From Escherichia phage T5, in the sequence record NC_005859.1: DNA of 64,000 nt; one strand, written 5' to 3'. A model generated the notes under the pieces. It was given only the letters and a program-made list of their open reading frames with translations, was not told the DNA's origin and made no database searches. Both the position numbers and the translations under genes were made by a program. This document shows positions 1,201-4,581 of the stretch, in pieces. Position 1 is the stretch's first letter. Every line of letters begins with the position of its first letter.

Positions 1201-1227
1201 ACCGAGTCATTTTGGCTCGGTTTTCTC
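1201..1227 (+). terminator. rho-independent terminator
   Basis: stem accgagtc/ggctcggt with following T-run, just after stop of 785..1177. Confidence 0.55.
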
Positions 1228-1268: not shown

Positions 1269-1297
1269 TTGCAGGATGCCCAAAATCTTGATATAAT
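1269..1297 (+). promoter_or_regulatory. sigma70-type early promoter
   Basis: -35 TTGCAG, 17-bp spacer, extended -10 TGaTATAAT, followed by T5-early-like ATTTATATTGAATTGAGAGA tract. Confidence 0.5.
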
Positions 1298-1794
1298 ATT
1301 TATATTGAATTGAGAGACATTAGTAAAAATTGATTTTGCTAATTTTTCTTGTTTACAATCCGCGATACGGAACAGTTAGGCTGCCCCATTAAGGGTTGTT
1401 TTAACTGTTACTAGTGTTTATATTGCATTAGTTAATATTCAATTAAGTGATCTGTGTACCCTGAATTCGGAAAGGTAAATCCAAACCGTGCATATTTAGC
1501 TCGTTATATAGGCAGAGTTTTATATGGGGGTGCGAACGAAAAGAGCAGCGAATGGCGGCACGTACAGTAGTCACCTACCAATAGGATAGTGAGGACAAAT
1601 AGAATCGGCTTAGCGGCCAATGACCTAGGTTCTATTCTGTATATGAGCGAAGAGAGCACAGCACTGAGATATGATAACTTATTCATATTGTTTGATGATA
1701 ATTGATGTTTACGTAAATAGTAGTAATAGTTGTTCTATTCTTTCTGAATAGTCCTAAAGAAAAGATTTCGATTAACCAACACAGGAGTATTGTT

Positions 1795-4581
1795 GTGTTT
1801 TCTATCCTCCAAGGTCACGCCGGATTTTCTCGTGATTTAGCAACAGGTATTTGGCGAGAAATCAAAGCGGAAGATTATACCTTTGCCAAGCGATTCTCGA
1901 AAGAGCATCCAGAAGGTAAACCAGCTTCTATGCCCTTCAAATTTGATGTAATAGAAGAGCACGACCCACAAAGCCTTGCCGAAATGTTACCCCTCATGAG
2001 ACGTTTAACGTCTGACCCTCATATCGTTGCGGTGCGAGGTCGATGTCTCGCACCTAAAAATAATGTGCGACGTAAGAAAGGTAACTTTAATGTATCTAAT
2101 CCTAGTAATATTATTGCTATGGACGTGGATGGTATCCTAGATACCGGTGGGTATGACAAATTTAATCTTGTTGGTATGGCCCGCCACATTATTAAGATGT
2201 TGAATAGTATTAGTGAGGATATGTTTCCTCTTGATGCAGGGTTTATTGCTCATGCATCGTCTTCGGCTGGGCTAAAACCAGGTATCCGAATGCACTTAAT
2301 GCTAGAATCTAACGTCAAGGTAACTCAGGGTCAGCTAAAGTTCTTATTTACATCTATCAACGATAGTAGTAAGCAAAAATTTGGTTTTGATATTGCCGAC
2401 CTAGCTTATTATTCATCTGTCCAGCTCCACTATTTTGCCGACCCCTTATTTAGCGATGGTATTGTTGATCCGTTTAAAGCGGAGAGTAAGCCACGTCTGG
2501 TGTATGTTAAAGGTTCGAAAGTAAATTTGCCCAATAATCTGGTTGACTATGAAACAACTAGAGGGGAGTTTAAGGAAGAGTTTTATTCTTTACTTGATCA
2601 AATTAAAGGCAAAAAGATTGCTTCTGATAAAGTAGAAGAAACCATCAGCGAGTTAGAAGAGGCTGATGATGGAGTGTATTTGCGTATTATCCCCAAACTA
2701 TACCATAGAGCATTAGAGGATGGTGTTGATTTTGCATGGCTAGAACGTGAGATTAAACCAGCTTTATCTGAATATATTGCAACTAAAGATAACAGTCGTA
2801 ATATTCAAGATTACTTTAATAACGGTCGTAAGCAGGCTCTCAAAGCGTTTGTTAATAATTCTAAACGTGAGATTCCATTAAATCTGAAAGGTGTTCCACT
2901 TAAGAAATTAGAAGTGGATTCTCCACCAGAAGTTCCATACCTGAAGATTAACATTGTGCCCCCAAAAGGCCATATAACATTTGTTAAGGCAAGTCTTGGT
3001 ACTGGTAAAACTACGGCAGTAACTAAATGGCTGGACGCAGGTGTTCTTCCAGGCAACTTTTTAGCAGTTACAAATACTAGAGCACTGGTATCTTCAAATG
3101 CCAAGAAATTTAGTGCAGGACAATACGATAAGTCTGTAGATATGCTCAACTTTAAACGTGGAGCTATCGATCGTATGTCCACAACTATTCACTCTTTGCA
3201 TAAGTTCAAAAGTTTTATTGGGCAAATAGACACCATTTTTATTGATGAATGTGACGCTGTAATGAATGACCTATTATTCGCCCCTGTTGTTAAACAACGT
3301 CGCGAGTGTATTCAAGTTCTACGTGACATCCTTATGACAGCTAAGACTGTAATCTTATCCGATGGTGATATTAGTGCTGAGACGATTGAAGCATATGGTT
3401 CTCTAATTGATTTTGATAAACCAGTAGCATTTTATAATCATCACCGTAAAATGCTGTCAAAAGCACACGCTTATGAGTTTCCTGATGAATCCAGTATTTG
3501 GGTTGCACTTCAGACTTCTCTAGAGATGGGTGAGAAATCTATTCTAGTATCTGATTGTGGCCCGGATGAGCTGAATGAGAAGGGTATGGCACTGCGTCGT
3601 AATACGGGTGCGTTAGTTAAGGAAATCCATTCAAACTCCACCTCAGATGTGGATATTCGACGTATTCTGGATTATACAACTAATGAGCTAATTGATCAAC
3701 AAATTGATTGCTTATTATGTAGTCCATCCGTAACGAGTGGCGTTGACTTTAACTATTTCGATAATGTGTTTGTTATTACTAGAACCAGTAATCAAGCGCC
3801 AAACATGCGTTTCCAAGCAATCAGGCGCGACCGTGGTGCCCAGAACATCTATTATTTTATTGATAAATCTACGAGTGGATTCTCTGCAGGTTCTGAGCAA
3901 TATAATATTGATGAAGGTTGGCTGGAGTTAGCACAGCAATTATACGCACGTCGTAGAGAGCTGGAATCTAGAAACTATACTAGTACCTTACGTTATTATT
4001 TGCTTGATCAGGGTGCAACTATTGATATTTTCAGCGAAAGCTGGGGAACTATTGAAGGTGCTGGTAAAGAATATACAGAAGAGCGAATCAAAGCTATTCT
4101 GCATTCAACTCCAGATTATTGTGCCCCACGTCATGCAGATGCATATGAAGCTAAACTACTTCTTGTTCGCTATTATCATCTTGAGTCTATTAAAGATGTA
4201 ACAGTTGAGCATGTCGAACAATATATCAAAGATAAACCGAATGATCGAGCTGCATTCTTCCATAAGATGCACGAGATGTTCTGGGAAGATATTAAGAAGT
4301 GTTCAAATGTGACCATTAAACCATTCATAGAGGCTCTGAAAGGTAAGAAGAAAGACTTCTTCCTTAAAACAGGTCAGAGTGCCAACCCAAAATATGCTAG
4401 AATGTATCTTGGTATGATGGGTATTGGTAAGGATATGAACACTGAAAATATTGTAGACTGGTACAGAACCTATTGTAAAATCGAGTGTATGCCAATTCCT
4501 TTCAAATTCATGACAGAGGAAGAGAGGGCTATGGCAGAAGAAGTAATGTCCGAACTTGGAGCAACTAATGAAGATGCATAA
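1795..4581 (+). CDS. large P-loop ATPase, putative replication/origin-binding helicase-like protein
   Basis: 928-aa ORF, GTG start with RBS aggag; Walker A LGTGKTT; Walker-B-like FIDECD. Confidence 0.7.
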   Translation: MFSILQGHAGFSRDLATGIWREIKAEDYTFAKRFSKEHPEGKPASMPFKFDVIEEHDPQSLAEMLPLMRRLTSDPHIVAVRGRCLAPKNNVRRKKGNFNVSNPSNIIAMDVDGILDTGGYDKFNLVGMARHIIKMLNSISEDMFPLDAGFIAHASSSAGLKPGIRMHLMLESNVKVTQGQLKFLFTSINDSSKQKFGFDIADLAYYSSVQLHYFADPLFSDGIVDPFKAESKPRLVYVKGSKVNLPNNLVDYETTRGEFKEEFYSLLDQIKGKKIASDKVEETISELEEADDGVYLRIIPKLYHRALEDGVDFAWLEREIKPALSEYIATKDNSRNIQDYFNNGRKQALKAFVNNSKREIPLNLKGVPLKKLEVDSPPEVPYLKINIVPPKGHITFVKASLGTGKTTAVTKWLDAGVLPGNFLAVTNTRALVSSNAKKFSAGQYDKSVDMLNFKRGAIDRMSTTIHSLHKFKSFIGQIDTIFIDECDAVMNDLLFAPVVKQRRECIQVLRDILMTAKTVILSDGDISAETIEAYGSLIDFDKPVAFYNHHRKMLSKAHAYEFPDESSIWVALQTSLEMGEKSILVSDCGPDELNEKGMALRRNTGALVKEIHSNSTSDVDIRRILDYTTNELIDQQIDCLLCSPSVTSGVDFNYFDNVFVITRTSNQAPNMRFQAIRRDRGAQNIYYFIDKSTSGFSAGSEQYNIDEGWLELAQQLYARRRELESRNYTSTLRYYLLDQGATIDIFSESWGTIEGAGKEYTEERIKAILHSTPDYCAPRHADAYEAKLLLVRYYHLESIKDVTVEHVEQYIKDKPNDRAAFFHKMHEMFWEDIKKCSNVTIKPFIEALKGKKKDFFLKTGQSANPKYARMYLGMMGIGKDMNTENIVDWYRTYCKIECMPIPFKFMTEEERAMAEEVMSELGATNEDA

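Follow-up and report, generated by a model that had tools for sequence, protein, structure and literature searches.

Comparative evidence for a large structured leader RNA upstream of the D2 gene of bacteriophage T5

Autogenous and ligand-responsive leaders, such as those of T4 gene 43 and gene 32, of E. coli rplT/L20 with its long-range pseudoknot, and of the T-box and large riboswitch systems, place an RNA structure between a promoter and an open reading frame. The interval preceding the D2 gene (obp) of Escherichia phage T5, analyzed here within a window of 64,000 nucleotides of NC_005859.1, occupies the same position, likewise contains covarying helices, some of them long-range, and likewise precedes the gene of a replication protein that binds nucleic acids and for which its own leader is a plausible target. 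It is, in contrast, much larger than phage translational operators, and differs from riboswitch and T-box leaders in that we found neither a covarying expression platform nor an Rfam match. Antitermination RNAs (HK022 put, the rrn leader boxA/boxB, EAR) similarly open long operons with a structured RNA after a strong promoter, but put and EAR span 70-120 nt, and the T5 RNA bears only a weak by-eye likeness to boxA, none of it convincing.

Among phage RNAs that act as discrete molecules, the phi29 pRNA resembles the T5 element in being phage-encoded, promoter-driven and structured, with covarying helices and conserved loops, and in that the T5 element, too, could partner an ATPase motor; pRNA is, however, a discrete 174-nt RNA dedicated to packaging, whereas the T5 RNA sits in an mRNA leader, is linked to replication and has no Rfam match. 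The GOLLD and ROOL RNAs share its large size, multihelix architecture, phage residence and lack of a biochemically assigned function, yet their covariance models do not match it, the T5 RNA is rich in A and T and keeps a fixed place ahead of obp, and the tRNA genes beside which GOLLD and ROOL typically lie are absent from the 64-kb window. Finally, as at ColE1 RNA II, T4 oriF/oriG and the T7 origins, an untranslated RNA, ~500 nt long and conserved in its fold, is made from a strong promoter; it adjoins replication functions and lies near a mapped central origin, and its diverged "alleles" recall the specificity and incompatibility variants of ColE1 RNA I/II. Unlike ColE1, the T5 site lacks an RNA I-type antisense promoter and its transcription runs on into the initiator gene; moreover, an origin role at this site is putative, and origins in T4 and T7 work without an elaborate RNA fold.

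The promoter-to-D2 interval and its coding capacity

The elements that frame the interval are as follows.

1201..1226, + strand: intrinsic terminator closing the upstream operon (T5p103-105), found by terminator scan; hairpin ACCGAGTCA/TGGCTCGGT with a T-run after it
1269..1297, + strand: early promoter P32, from sequence, GenBank annotations and conservation across Demerecviridae lineages
1304..1794, + strand: D2 leader RNA, whole element, ~491 nt (about 490), untranslated
1780..1797, + strand: predicted translation-initiation hairpin, CACAG (1780-1784) with TTGTG (1793-1797), from RNAalifold
1795..4581, + strand: D2/obp, a 928-aa UL9-like SF2 helicase and putative replication initiator

The upstream operon ends at a rho-independent terminator that is annotated as such in AY587007 and BF23 and kept in relatives, where its stem covaries. 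P32 follows, with a -35 element TTGCAG (1269-1274), a 17-nt spacer and an extended -10 TGaTATAAT (1289-1297); it carries the label "putative early promoter T5P32" in AY587007 and "putative promoter" in AY692264, which is 100% identical to the window. The first-pass annotation had called it a consensus early promoter, a description that holds for the promoter but is slightly generous as to consensus: the -35 hexamer matches TTGACA at 3/6 positions, which is why a generic promoter scan missed it. Distant relatives nevertheless keep the TTGC..-17-TATAAT core together with the downstream TTGAGAGA, and three further lineages (L043, L047 and L051) have equivalent promoters, scoring 10-12/12, at the same place. 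Transcription from P32 probably starts near A1304. AT-rich stretches with a GC content of 0.27-0.29 lie on both sides of the structured core described below.

Scans of the + strand of 1298-1794 returned no terminator and no D2-proximal promoter, which makes the RNA, in T5, physically part of the D2 mRNA as its leader. One promoter-like arrangement, TTGATT-18-TACAAT (1330-1359), falls inside the SL1 hairpin and the SL1-SL2 linker (see below) and was treated as fortuitous; its -10 is not conserved in phage DU_PP_V, as read by eye from the alignment. At the distal end, the D2 Shine-Dalgarno sequence AGGAG (1783-1787) overlaps the 5' arm and loop of the initiation hairpin, with the GTG start at 1795; this hairpin is weakly supported, since its changes are one-sided (C to U). 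Within D2, residues 389-533 match the Pfam family Herpes_ori_bp, and the protein's biochemistry and its proposal as replication initiator have been described (PMC3632103).

A gap of this kind is a family-wide feature. About 900 deposited Demerecviridae genomes have obp, and in every lineage examined the gene is preceded by an ORF-free stretch of 430 to at least 1400 nt, which persists even where the upstream neighbors differ and begins with a strong promoter wherever checked. In T5 itself, the earlier observation of some 500 nt downstream of the promoter with no credible ORF is borne out: the interval comprises ~490 nt and no conserved ORF. An overlooked small-protein gene, which would account for the eight ORFs of 20-60 aa that overlap 1298-1794 and for the small ORFs called here by some annotators in relatives, is very improbable. 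The central ORFs are all interrupted by stops in Epseptimavirus relatives or missing in type B relatives, while in the invariant 5' part two ORFs of 20-21 aa, each starting with TTG, have no Shine-Dalgarno sequence, and their start codons are absent in DU_PP_V (read by eye). None of the interval's ORFs combined a start and a ribosome-binding site with an intact frame in relatives, and the substitutions are governed by base pairing rather than codon structure.

Nor does the interval correspond to a described RNA family: it is a large structured RNA absent from RNA family catalogues. A cmscan of the T5 interval against Rfam 15 gave at best snoRNA and miRNA noise (11-16 bits, E >= 3), with nothing in type B or DU_PP_V and nothing relevant in eight distant loci; riboswitches, T-box, pRNA, GOLLD, ROOL, 6S, RNase P, tmRNA, group I/II introns and ribozymes were all without a match. 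ARAGORN found no tRNA or tmRNA in the 64-kb window. The Rfam searches gave no backing to likenesses noted by eye with RNase P CR-V, group II domain V or the rrn boxA leader, and the Rad anti-retron factor of the T5 family, a protein from the tRNA region, is unrelated to the interval. A blastn search with the interval as query found no match among 5,426 E. coli genomes, making host mimicry or antisense targeting through extended similarity unlikely.

A covarying fold on the sense strand

The predicted sense-strand architecture consists of a 5'-terminal hairpin, SL1, an irregular hairpin, SL2, and a ~330-nt multihelix domain closed by the long-range helix P1, with the following elements.

1311..1351, + strand: SL1, 5'-terminal hairpin; outer TGAGAGA/TTTCTTG, inner ATTAGTAAAA/TTTTGCTAAT
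1355..1399, + strand: SL2, irregular hairpin, ACAATCC...GGGTTGT with apical CAGT-TAG-GCTG, from RNAalifold
1403..1445, + strand: P1 5' strand (P1a 1403-1413, P1b 1415-1420, P1c 1439-1445), inverted repeats I1 and I3
1446..1457, + strand: P2 5' strand (P2a AGTG 1446-1449, P2b CTGTGT 1452-1457)
1456..1533, + strand: P3 three-way subdomain; P3 GTACCC (1456-1461) with GGGTGC (1528-1533)
1468..1470 with 1486..1488 and 1498..1502 with 1515..1519, + strand: P3a and P3b, respectively, within the P3 subdomain
1598..1636, + strand: P5 hairpin; outer stem (P5o) AATAGAATC (1598-1606) with GGTTCTATT (1628-1636)
1607..1618, + strand: P5 inner stem GGC (1607-1609) with GCC (1616-1618) and hexaloop TTAGCG (1610-1615)
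1656..1665, + strand: P2 3' strand, GCACAG (1656-1661) and CACT (1662-1665)
1669..1688, + strand: P6 hairpin, ATATGA/TCATAT; 5/6 pairs compensatory across six lineages
1699..1731, + strand: P1 3' strand (P1c 1699-1705, P1b 1714-1719, P1a 1721-1731)
1735..1751, + strand: P7 hairpin, CTATTC/GAATAG, directly after P1 and without a U-tract

Folding energy by itself distinguishes the sense strand modestly from shuffled sequence (z = -2.15, for a single sequence; antisense z = -1.48). It is rather the covariation that we regard as decisive comparative evidence that the fold exceeds chance, and the structure-conservation analysis that had been proposed as a check on the first-pass annotation thereby supports a conserved sense-strand fold. 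A de novo RNAalifold prediction from 29 T5-like sequences contains 84 pairs, 18 of them with compensatory changes. For P1a, P2, P5 and P7 in the T5-like phages, 97.9% of cells pair, as against 30-47% with a slid partner, and nine pairs are altered on both sides, as against 0-2. SL1 and SL2, taken over four lineages, give 33 pairs with 12 compensatory ones (RNAalifold), and a covariance model of P5 and P6 over six lineages has both sides changed in 15/18 pairs, with a covariation score of 0.508 versus 0.07-0.19. Across eight representatives, where the helices are collinear while their sequences differ, 624 Watson-Crick and 71 G-U pairs stand against eight mismatched ones; the lineages with compensatory substitutions include Escherichia, Salmonella, Klebsiella, Pectobacterium and Providencia phages. 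The fold is assigned to the sense strand because its frequent G-U pairs, like its U-A to U-G switches, would read as A-C mismatches in a fold of the opposite strand. It is important to note that whole-length alignment across lineages, whether by plain MAFFT or by segment-anchored MAFFT and then RNAalifold, did not align the core correctly, so within-type alignments, a helix-by-helix table and the P5-P6 covariance model were used instead; a P5-only alignment (A4) was out of register and left unused.

The same data bear on whether the interval could be a nonfunctional spacer whose hairpins arose by chance in AT-rich DNA. The modest single-sequence z of -2.15 would fit such a spacer, as would the fact that one of the two hairpins first proposed is indeed not conserved. 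Against it, the interval is better conserved than its flanking genes (99% and 91.8% identity to Epseptimavirus, compared with 74% and 86.6% in flanking coding DNA), its many independent compensatory changes far exceed what slid-partner and shuffle controls give, and the long gap lasts across the whole phage family. We therefore give the spacer reading next to no credence, and on comparative grounds it is already refuted: together, the alignments show strong selection, both purifying and compensatory, on a sense-strand RNA structure. The predicted fold, its strand, its conservation and the lack of coding capacity can be taken as established at the level of sequence comparison.

Individual helices differ in how they vary. 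SL1, predicted de novo by RNAalifold with compensatory changes among sequences from four lineages, had its pairs verified in the eight representatives. SL2, which holds the nearly invariant GATACGGAACAGTTAGGCTGCCCCAT, does not differ between type A and type B phages (100% identity); Pectobacterium and Klebsiella phages keep ~70% identity to it, with compensatory changes in its outer stem. The three segments of P1 add up to ~24 bp; P1a pairs at 100% in the 29 sequences, with AU/GC/GU covariation at 1407:1725, and P1 holds its position with different sequence in IME260, DU_PP_V and My1, while in L039 a one-sided U-A to U-G change preserves pairing. P2 has both sides changed in 4/10 pairs among T5-like phages (CTGTGT/GCACAG, CTGCGT/GCGCAG, CTACAY/GTGTAG) and reads CTAGAA/TTCTAG in the Klebsiella phage. 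The helices of the P3 subdomain occupy collinear positions with differing sequence in five lineages, and P3 shows a compensatory G-C to A-U change in type B (L030, L038); being hand-derived, this subdomain is less secure than P1, P2 and P5. P6 is ATATGA/TCATAT or GTATGA/TCATAC in type A and AAGTGG/CCACTT or AAGGGG/CCCCTT in type B, and P7 keeps its position as CTATC/GATAG in the Klebsiella phage and CTTTCC/GGAAAG in DU_PP_V.

The two stem-loops singled out at first reading fared differently. The inverted repeat aacagtta..taactgtt exists (AACAGTTA at 1371-1378 and TAACTGTT at 1402-1409, I13), but as a structure spanning 1371-1409 it gives way to the conserved fold, in which its arms go to SL2 and P1a instead; G1407A, present in most type A phages, disrupts the hairpin and improves P1a. 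The second, ATAGAA/TTCTAT within 1598-1636, is real and forms P5o of the UUAGCG hairpin, with compensatory changes in 4/9 pairs among T5-like phages and, over six lineages, in both sides of 8/9 outer-stem and 2/3 inner-stem pairs. In P5, CTTAGCGG is invariant and the UUAGCG loop is kept in every clear homologue. A UUAGCG:UGCUAA pseudoknot drawn by eye was dropped, its partner not being kept in Klebsiella or Providencia phages.

Core exchange and candidate roles

Two deeply diverged "alleles" of the core domain, type A and type B, lie between conserved flanks that are 92-100% identical; the same cassette-exchange pattern is seen in the Vibrio phages, and the core appears to behave as an exchangeable specificity cassette. 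Its alleles track D2 variants, with N-terminal identity of 87-89% versus 92-100%. An optional expansion segment of 88-96 nt is present in 51 genomes. Such segments are typical of structured RNAs. Beyond the Providencia phages, homologues of the covariance model R1 were not convincingly detected: scores were marginal for Aeromonas TS3 (E = 0.067) and L043/L044 (E = 0.28), and there was no match in the Vibrio and Serratia phages.

In light of these results, the RNA in T5 is most likely a binding platform tied to D2 expression, a role that we infer and hold tentatively, somewhat short of an even chance. P32 would transcribe the ~490-nt untranslated RNA as the 5' part of the D2 mRNA; SL1, near the presumed 5' end, may stabilize it against 5'-end-dependent decay; and the P1-closed ~330-nt domain, with its three-way junction and conserved UUAGCG-loop hairpin, would serve as a platform to which a trans factor binds, the most plausible candidates being D2 and other replication proteins of the phage; this binding would act in cis to set the amount or timing of D2, as in autogenous leader control. 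The T5 locus does present a conserved structured domain between promoter and D2 within one transcription unit, and of the earlier suggestion of a "regulatory leader or small RNA" the structured D2 leader stands on covariation and position, whereas "small" does not suit ~490 nt and a ~330-nt domain. We found no covarying helix that sequesters the Shine-Dalgarno sequence and no terminator/antiterminator switch in the T5 leader, and our literature search found no published transcript, end-mapping or binding data for the T5 interval. Vibrio phages do carry, close to the 5' end, an invariant UCUCCU with complementarity to GGGAGA, the Shine-Dalgarno sequence of obp. Several observations sit less easily with a cis-acting leader: a 330-nt multidomain fold far exceeds known translational operators, homology past the Providencia phages is marginal, and obp has its own promoter in L043/L044 and terminators ahead of it in Vibrio D233 and, by eye, Aeromonas TS3.

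The promoter and terminator arrangements also favor another reading, in which the P1-closed domain acts alone in trans, perhaps processed from the D2 transcript near P7, as an RNA subunit or scaffold of a replication complex in the way that pRNA serves the phi29 packaging motor, as a decoy for a host or defense factor, or as a GOLLD/ROOL-like ornate RNA. The L043/L044 lineage has a perfect 12/12 promoter between the RNA and obp, and D233 has tandem terminators ahead of the gene; if the D233 and TS3 upstream RNAs are homologous, the RNA need not belong to the obp mRNA. The domain is also self-contained behind its ~24-bp helix, is exchanged as a cassette between 92-100% identical flanks, in Vibrio phages too, accepts the optional 88-96-nt segment, exceeds the usual cis operators in size and complexity, and is followed immediately by the positionally conserved P7, where a 3' end would fall. 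We nonetheless consider such autonomy improbable: T5 has no terminator after the domain, neither complementarity nor similarity to E. coli genomes suggests a target or mimicry, pRNA, GOLLD, ROOL, 6S and the other Rfam models do not match, the usual tRNA companions of GOLLD and ROOL are lacking nearby, and strict linkage to obp is unneeded for a trans-acting RNA. The TS3 hairpin, seen by eye, is a terminator-like structure matching the D233 arrangement.

Another possibility is that the interval lies at or next to the primary T5 origin. The promoter-driven RNA, with its fold, would then serve to switch the origin on or to prime DNA synthesis via a persistent R-loop; in a variant, the fold would form in single-stranded DNA as a D2 loading or priming site. 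The interval directly precedes the putative initiator gene (PMC3632103) in every lineage examined, a position that holds even in lineages with a separate obp promoter or a terminator for the RNA. It falls at ~59.1-59.6 kb of the 121.75-kb genome (48.5-49%), and T5 origins were mapped near the center of the DNA, as relayed in a preprint by Davison that cites Bourguignon 1976 (10.1101/866236). The AT-rich stretches flanking the core point the same way, as does the tracking of D2 variants by core alleles, which would fit an initiator-origin specificity pair but may equally be simple linkage. The D2 N-terminus is, in addition, weakly like AEP primases such as RepB' (a lead only, from a low-confidence model with pLDDT 55.9). 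RepB'-like AEP primases recognize structured single-stranded sites. On the other side, a search for iterons (three or more conserved direct repeats, as at lambda ori and in plasmid and SaPI origins) and DnaA-like repeats yielded only weak two-copy families with 73-100% identity, and the longer direct repeats, including TTTATATTG-like boxes, are not kept in type B. No promoter-like site of the RNA I antisense kind occurs on the - strand of 1000-2100, where the sole signal is a weak terminator-like hairpin (1621-1604); the window has no GC-skew inflection at the site; the GC-skew estimate for phage phiLLS, a crude method, places its "origin" ~3 kb away (PMC5519627); and known phage R-loop origins do without a conserved 330-nt fold. 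We regard an origin function as possible, though unlikely.

Whichever function applies, a strongly selected fold that is kept in several T5-like genera and lies right before D2 provides a concrete, mutable handle on origin and initiator control in a classical model phage. A bolder proposition, which we think rather doubtful, is that T5-like phages carry an ornate RNA of ~330-490 nt integral to replication initiation, either as a central-origin primer or R-loop transcript or as a D2-bound cofactor; if true, initiator and genome would be matched through the exchangeable core, acting as specificity determinant. As an uncatalogued large structured RNA, the element joins the short list of ornate phage RNAs, and its evolution is unusual in that the flanks are invariant and the core is swapped wholesale while the architecture is retained. 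In the records inspected, the stretch before obp is either unannotated or given spurious small ORFs, which the present RNA model would correct.

The untranslated interval upstream of D2

Features of the D2 locus
347-775: T5p104 (142 aa), upstream of the terminator
785-1177: T5p105 (130 aa), upstream of the terminator
1201-1221: intrinsic terminator (terminator scan and GenBank annotation), 3' of T5p104/T5p105, which end at 1177
1269-1297: promoter P32, read from the sequence as TTGCAG (1269-1274), a 17-nt spacer and TGaTATAAT (1289-1297)
1795-4581, + strand: D2, a 928-aa ORF annotated in GenBank as 'replication origin binding protein'

The first-pass annotation had described a promoter at 1269-1297 followed by roughly 500 nt without a credible ORF, and both elements are borne out. 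P32 is listed as T5P32, a putative (early) promoter, in two GenBank records, and its core and the following TTGAGAGA are kept in distant relatives; it is absent from a generic sigma-70 scan because its -35 hexamer matches TTGACA at 3/6 positions only. The 491 nt between the inferred transcription start near A1304 and the D2 GTG start codon at 1795 hold only ORFs of 20-60 aa, the central ones each stop-interrupted in Epseptimavirus relatives or missing from relatives with the type B core (the diverged version of the domain described below), and a protein-coding role for the interval is effectively excluded.

The window is bacteriophage T5: over positions 1150-1850 it matches AY692264 (T5 st0) at 100% identity and AY587007 at 99.9%. 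By blastn the interval is present in 532 phage records. Between T5 and one Epseptimavirus (L026), identity reaches 99% in the first ~100 nt of the RNA and 91.8% in the P1-closed domain, against 74% in the T5p105 coding DNA of the upstream flank and 86.6% in the D2 coding DNA downstream; the non-coding interval is therefore more strongly constrained than its coding neighbours. In every Demerecviridae lineage examined the D2 orthologue (obp) is preceded by a long ORF-free gap with, wherever checked, a strong promoter at its opening, and the genes upstream of the gap vary in some lineages. The gap measures ~600 nt in Klebsiella Sugarlandvirus and in Pectobacterium DU_PP_V and My1, ~715 nt in Providencia Priunavirus, ~820 nt in an unassigned lineage (L043/L044), 433 nt in Serratia Kamaji, ~710-830 nt in Vibrio Thalassavirus-like phages, ~860 nt in Vibrio D233 and at least 1400 nt in Aeromonas TS3. 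The TS3 region carries three hairpin-like UUAGCGG copies (~296, ~541 and ~1118 of locus L053), which points to duplication or expansion of the RNA there.

D2 itself matches Pfam Herpes_ori_bp at residues 389-533 and is known from biochemical work as an SF2 helicase of unusual, bipolar type, for which the role of T5 replication initiator has been proposed (PMC3632103). Residues 1-400 (1795-2994) are without a Pfam match, and their low-confidence AlphaFold model (pLDDT 55.9) has weak Foldseek matches to ASFV PrimPol, the RSF1010 RepB' primase and the LigD polymerase domain (E 2e-3 to 0.3); by eye, AMDVDG and GIRMHLM are similar to AEP motifs I and II, and on this modelled likeness D2 may be a primase-helicase fusion. 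T5p104 and T5p105 look like tandem paralogues, sharing by eye PCIG, MGL[IV].ALN..LF.P and a C-terminal G[IY]..PGL. A further promoter-like site (1330-1359, TTGATT-18-TACAAT, 9/12) falls within SL1 and the linker to SL2; in DU_PP_V the -10 is not conserved. In Escherichia phage YJin-2024a (L006, 938-1390) and in Stokescottia (L008, 316-768), a homing-endonuclease gene of the HNH type, bringing a promoter-like sequence of its own, has been inserted after the upstream terminator and ahead of the leader; the insertion corresponds to ~1222-1290 and replaces all sequence upstream of the TATAAT -10, the -35 included, and the leader RNA is intact despite it.

Architecture and covariation of the leader RNA

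The architecture was derived by comparing five deep lineages.

Elements of the leader RNA
1311-1351: SL1, hairpin near the inferred 5' end
1355-1399: SL2, irregular hairpin holding the nearly invariant GAUACGGAACAGUUAGGCUGCCCCAU
1403-1445 with 1699-1731: P1, long-range helix in three segments, closing the core
1446-1457 with 1656-1665: P2
1456-1533: P3, P3a and P3b, a three-way sub-domain
P4: weak hairpin
1598-1636: P5, its inner stem closing the conserved UUAGCG hexaloop (1610-1615)
1669-1688: P6
1735-1751: P7, directly 3' of P1
1780-1797: small hairpin at the Shine-Dalgarno sequence and start codon

In eight representatives of the five lineages the helices occupy collinear positions with differing sequences (the 5' and 3' strands of P2b, for instance, fall at RNA positions 140-150 and 340-356), and their pairs total 624 Watson-Crick, 71 G-U and 8 mismatched. 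Since hand-picked helices are open to bias, four independent checks were run. RNAalifold, applied without our input to a MAFFT alignment of 29 type A (the T5 version) and type B sequences, recovered P1a, P2, P5 and P7 and added SL2 (84 pairs, 18 compensatory). In the same 29 sequences the in-register helices are 97.9% paired, against 30-47% when the 3' partner is slid by 1-3 columns, with both partners changed in 9 pairs against 0-2 and a covariation score of 0.250 against 0.03-0.06, a value reached by 0/500 shuffles. RNAalifold on the first 100 nt of four lineages predicted SL1 and SL2 (33 pairs, 12 compensatory), and a P5-P6 covariance model from 28 loci of six lineages has 15/18 pairs altered on both sides, 84.9% pairing against 39-53% when slid, and a score of 0.508 against 0.07-0.19.

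Unambiguous within-type helix variants
P2b: CUGUGU/GCACAG, CUGCGU/GCGCAG, CUACAY/GUGUAG
P3, type B: UCCCGU/ACGGGA and UCCCAU/AUGGGA
P4, type B: GGAGU/ACUCC and AGAGU/ACUCU
P6, type A: AUAUGA/UCAUAU and GUAUGA/UCAUAC
P6, type B: AAGUGG/CCACUU and AAGGGG/CCCCUU

The structure-conservation analysis that the first-pass annotation had suggested as a check thus finds compensatory pairing across lineages, and chance as the source of the structure is effectively excluded. Both inverted repeats named there exist, with different fates: the second (ATAGAA...TTCTAT) is the strongly supported outer stem of P5, whereas the first (1371-1378 with 1402-1409) is not supported, its 5' arm lying in SL2 and its 3' arm being the start of P1a. 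In most type A phages A replaces G at 1407, which disrupts that hairpin and turns a P1a G-U pair into A-U; the same P1a pair is G-C in type B phages, and the hairpin has no counterpart in Pectobacterium or Klebsiella phages.

The many G-U pairs and several U-A to U-G substitutions (e.g., in the P1 3' strand of L039, another relative's locus) would be A-C mismatches on the complementary strand, which identifies the + strand, sense to D2 and transcribed from P32, as the structured one; folding relative to shuffled sequence gives z = -2.15 for sense and -1.48 for antisense. Covariation alone is also compatible with the same fold in single-stranded DNA, but the UUCG, YNMG and GAAA-type tetraloops that we read in distant members favour RNA.

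GTTCTATTCT occurs twice, at 1629-1638 (P5 3' strand) and 1732-1741 (P7 5' strand), and the P5 5' strand could alternatively pair with the P7 region in type A only; type B lacks this pairing, which makes a conserved switch improbable. An optional 88-96-nt segment, flanked by TTTTTCTT on each side, can be inserted into SL1 on its 3' side (insertion point 1343-1351); it is found at ~966-1062 of L007 and at the same site in L024, L031 and L046, in type A and type B backgrounds. By blastn it occurs in 51 phage genomes, each time single-copy at the SL1 site with 90-100% identity, and it has the look of a facultative expansion hairpin in the RNA rather than of a multicopy mobile element.

Exchange of the core domain

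Roughly 40% of the T5-like loci sampled carry the type B core. Relative to T5, their 5' 100 nt are 100% identical and their last 60 nt 92%, whereas the intervening 330 nt, almost unchanged in length, are 62.6% identical; in two such loci (L029, L009) the whole counterpart of 1403-1731 has been exchanged (about 60% identity), with 92-100% identity in the flanks. The two deeply diverged versions occur between near-identical flanks in Tequintavirus and Epseptimavirus. The type A core resembles the Providencia-phage RNA (common strings, by our reading, include UACCUGAAAUCCG and GGGUAACGAUAAGAAC) and type B the Pectobacterium-phage RNA (CCCGUAGG, GAGAAGUG and GUUGCCACCCC among others), and these sequence likenesses indicate that the core versions are ancient and are exchanged through recombination within the conserved flanks. 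Vibrio phages have swapped cores between kept flanks independently of the enteric phages (L051, L054 and L056 versus L055), and Pylo differs from Brizo, Kronos and VF16 within the core alone. Enteric core type tracks the D2 variant (N-terminal identity 87-89% versus 92-100%), which may reflect co-adaptation or mere linkage.

Possible roles of the RNA

Rfam 15 gave no family match for T5, type B, DU_PP_V or eight distant loci, ARAGORN found nothing, E. coli genomes contain nothing similar to the interval, and the full-text literature searched describes neither an RNA nor an origin at the site upstream of D2. A classical model phage has, ahead of its replication-initiator gene, an uncatalogued, large, conserved structured RNA, the function of which is directly testable. 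The RNA fold of the interval is promoter-proximal, non-coding, on the sense strand and strongly selected, and in T5, where neither a + strand terminator nor a D2-proximal promoter lies between RNA and ORF, the leader is continuous with D2. The first-pass finding is in this sense real and its reading as a candidate regulatory leader or small RNA is supported, and the interval is very probably a functional structured RNA. We tentatively propose, at a little under even chances, that the fold would serve as a platform for binding and influence D2 expression in cis, with SL1 as a putative stabiliser of the 5' end.

This cis-leader model, in its pure form, is weakened by distant lineages. L043 has two perfect 12/12 sigma-70 promoters, at 705-733 (RNA start) and 1435-1464 (immediately before obp); in D233 a tandem pair of terminators separates the upstream region from obp (L052, 1382-1429); and TS3 has, by eye, a terminator-like hairpin with a T6 run before obp (L053, ~1278-1325). 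D233 and TS3 also share a promoter-like TTGCAC...ACTTACGT string 3' of the terminator region. Homology of these RNAs to the T5 RNA is only marginal: covariance-model matches to the UUAGCGG hairpin have E = 0.067 in TS3 and 0.28 in L043/L044, and no covariance-model match to the T5 RNA was obtained in Vibrio or Serratia phages. The interval further lies at about 48.5-49% of the 121.75-kb T5 genome; the literature places T5 origins no more closely than near the genome centre (preprint 10.1101/866236, citing Bourguignon 1976), and a crude GC-skew estimate in phage phiLLS puts the origin about 3 kb away (PMC5519627). With separate obp transcription, marginal homology, invariable adjacency to the initiator gene and central position, two rival roles stay in contention. 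One, which we regard as rather unlikely, is at a replication origin, where the interval would give a primer or activator transcript or act as an ssDNA site; the other, in our view slightly less likely still, is as an autonomous ncRNA or RNP cofactor.

In four Vibrio phages (L051, L054, L055, L056) a UCUCCU some 40 nt into the RNA (columns 39-44 of their alignment, A7) is complementary to the obp Shine-Dalgarno sequence GGGAGA about 740 nt downstream (columns 783-788), and the two, each without variation in the four loci, could possibly form a long-range helix sequestering the latter.
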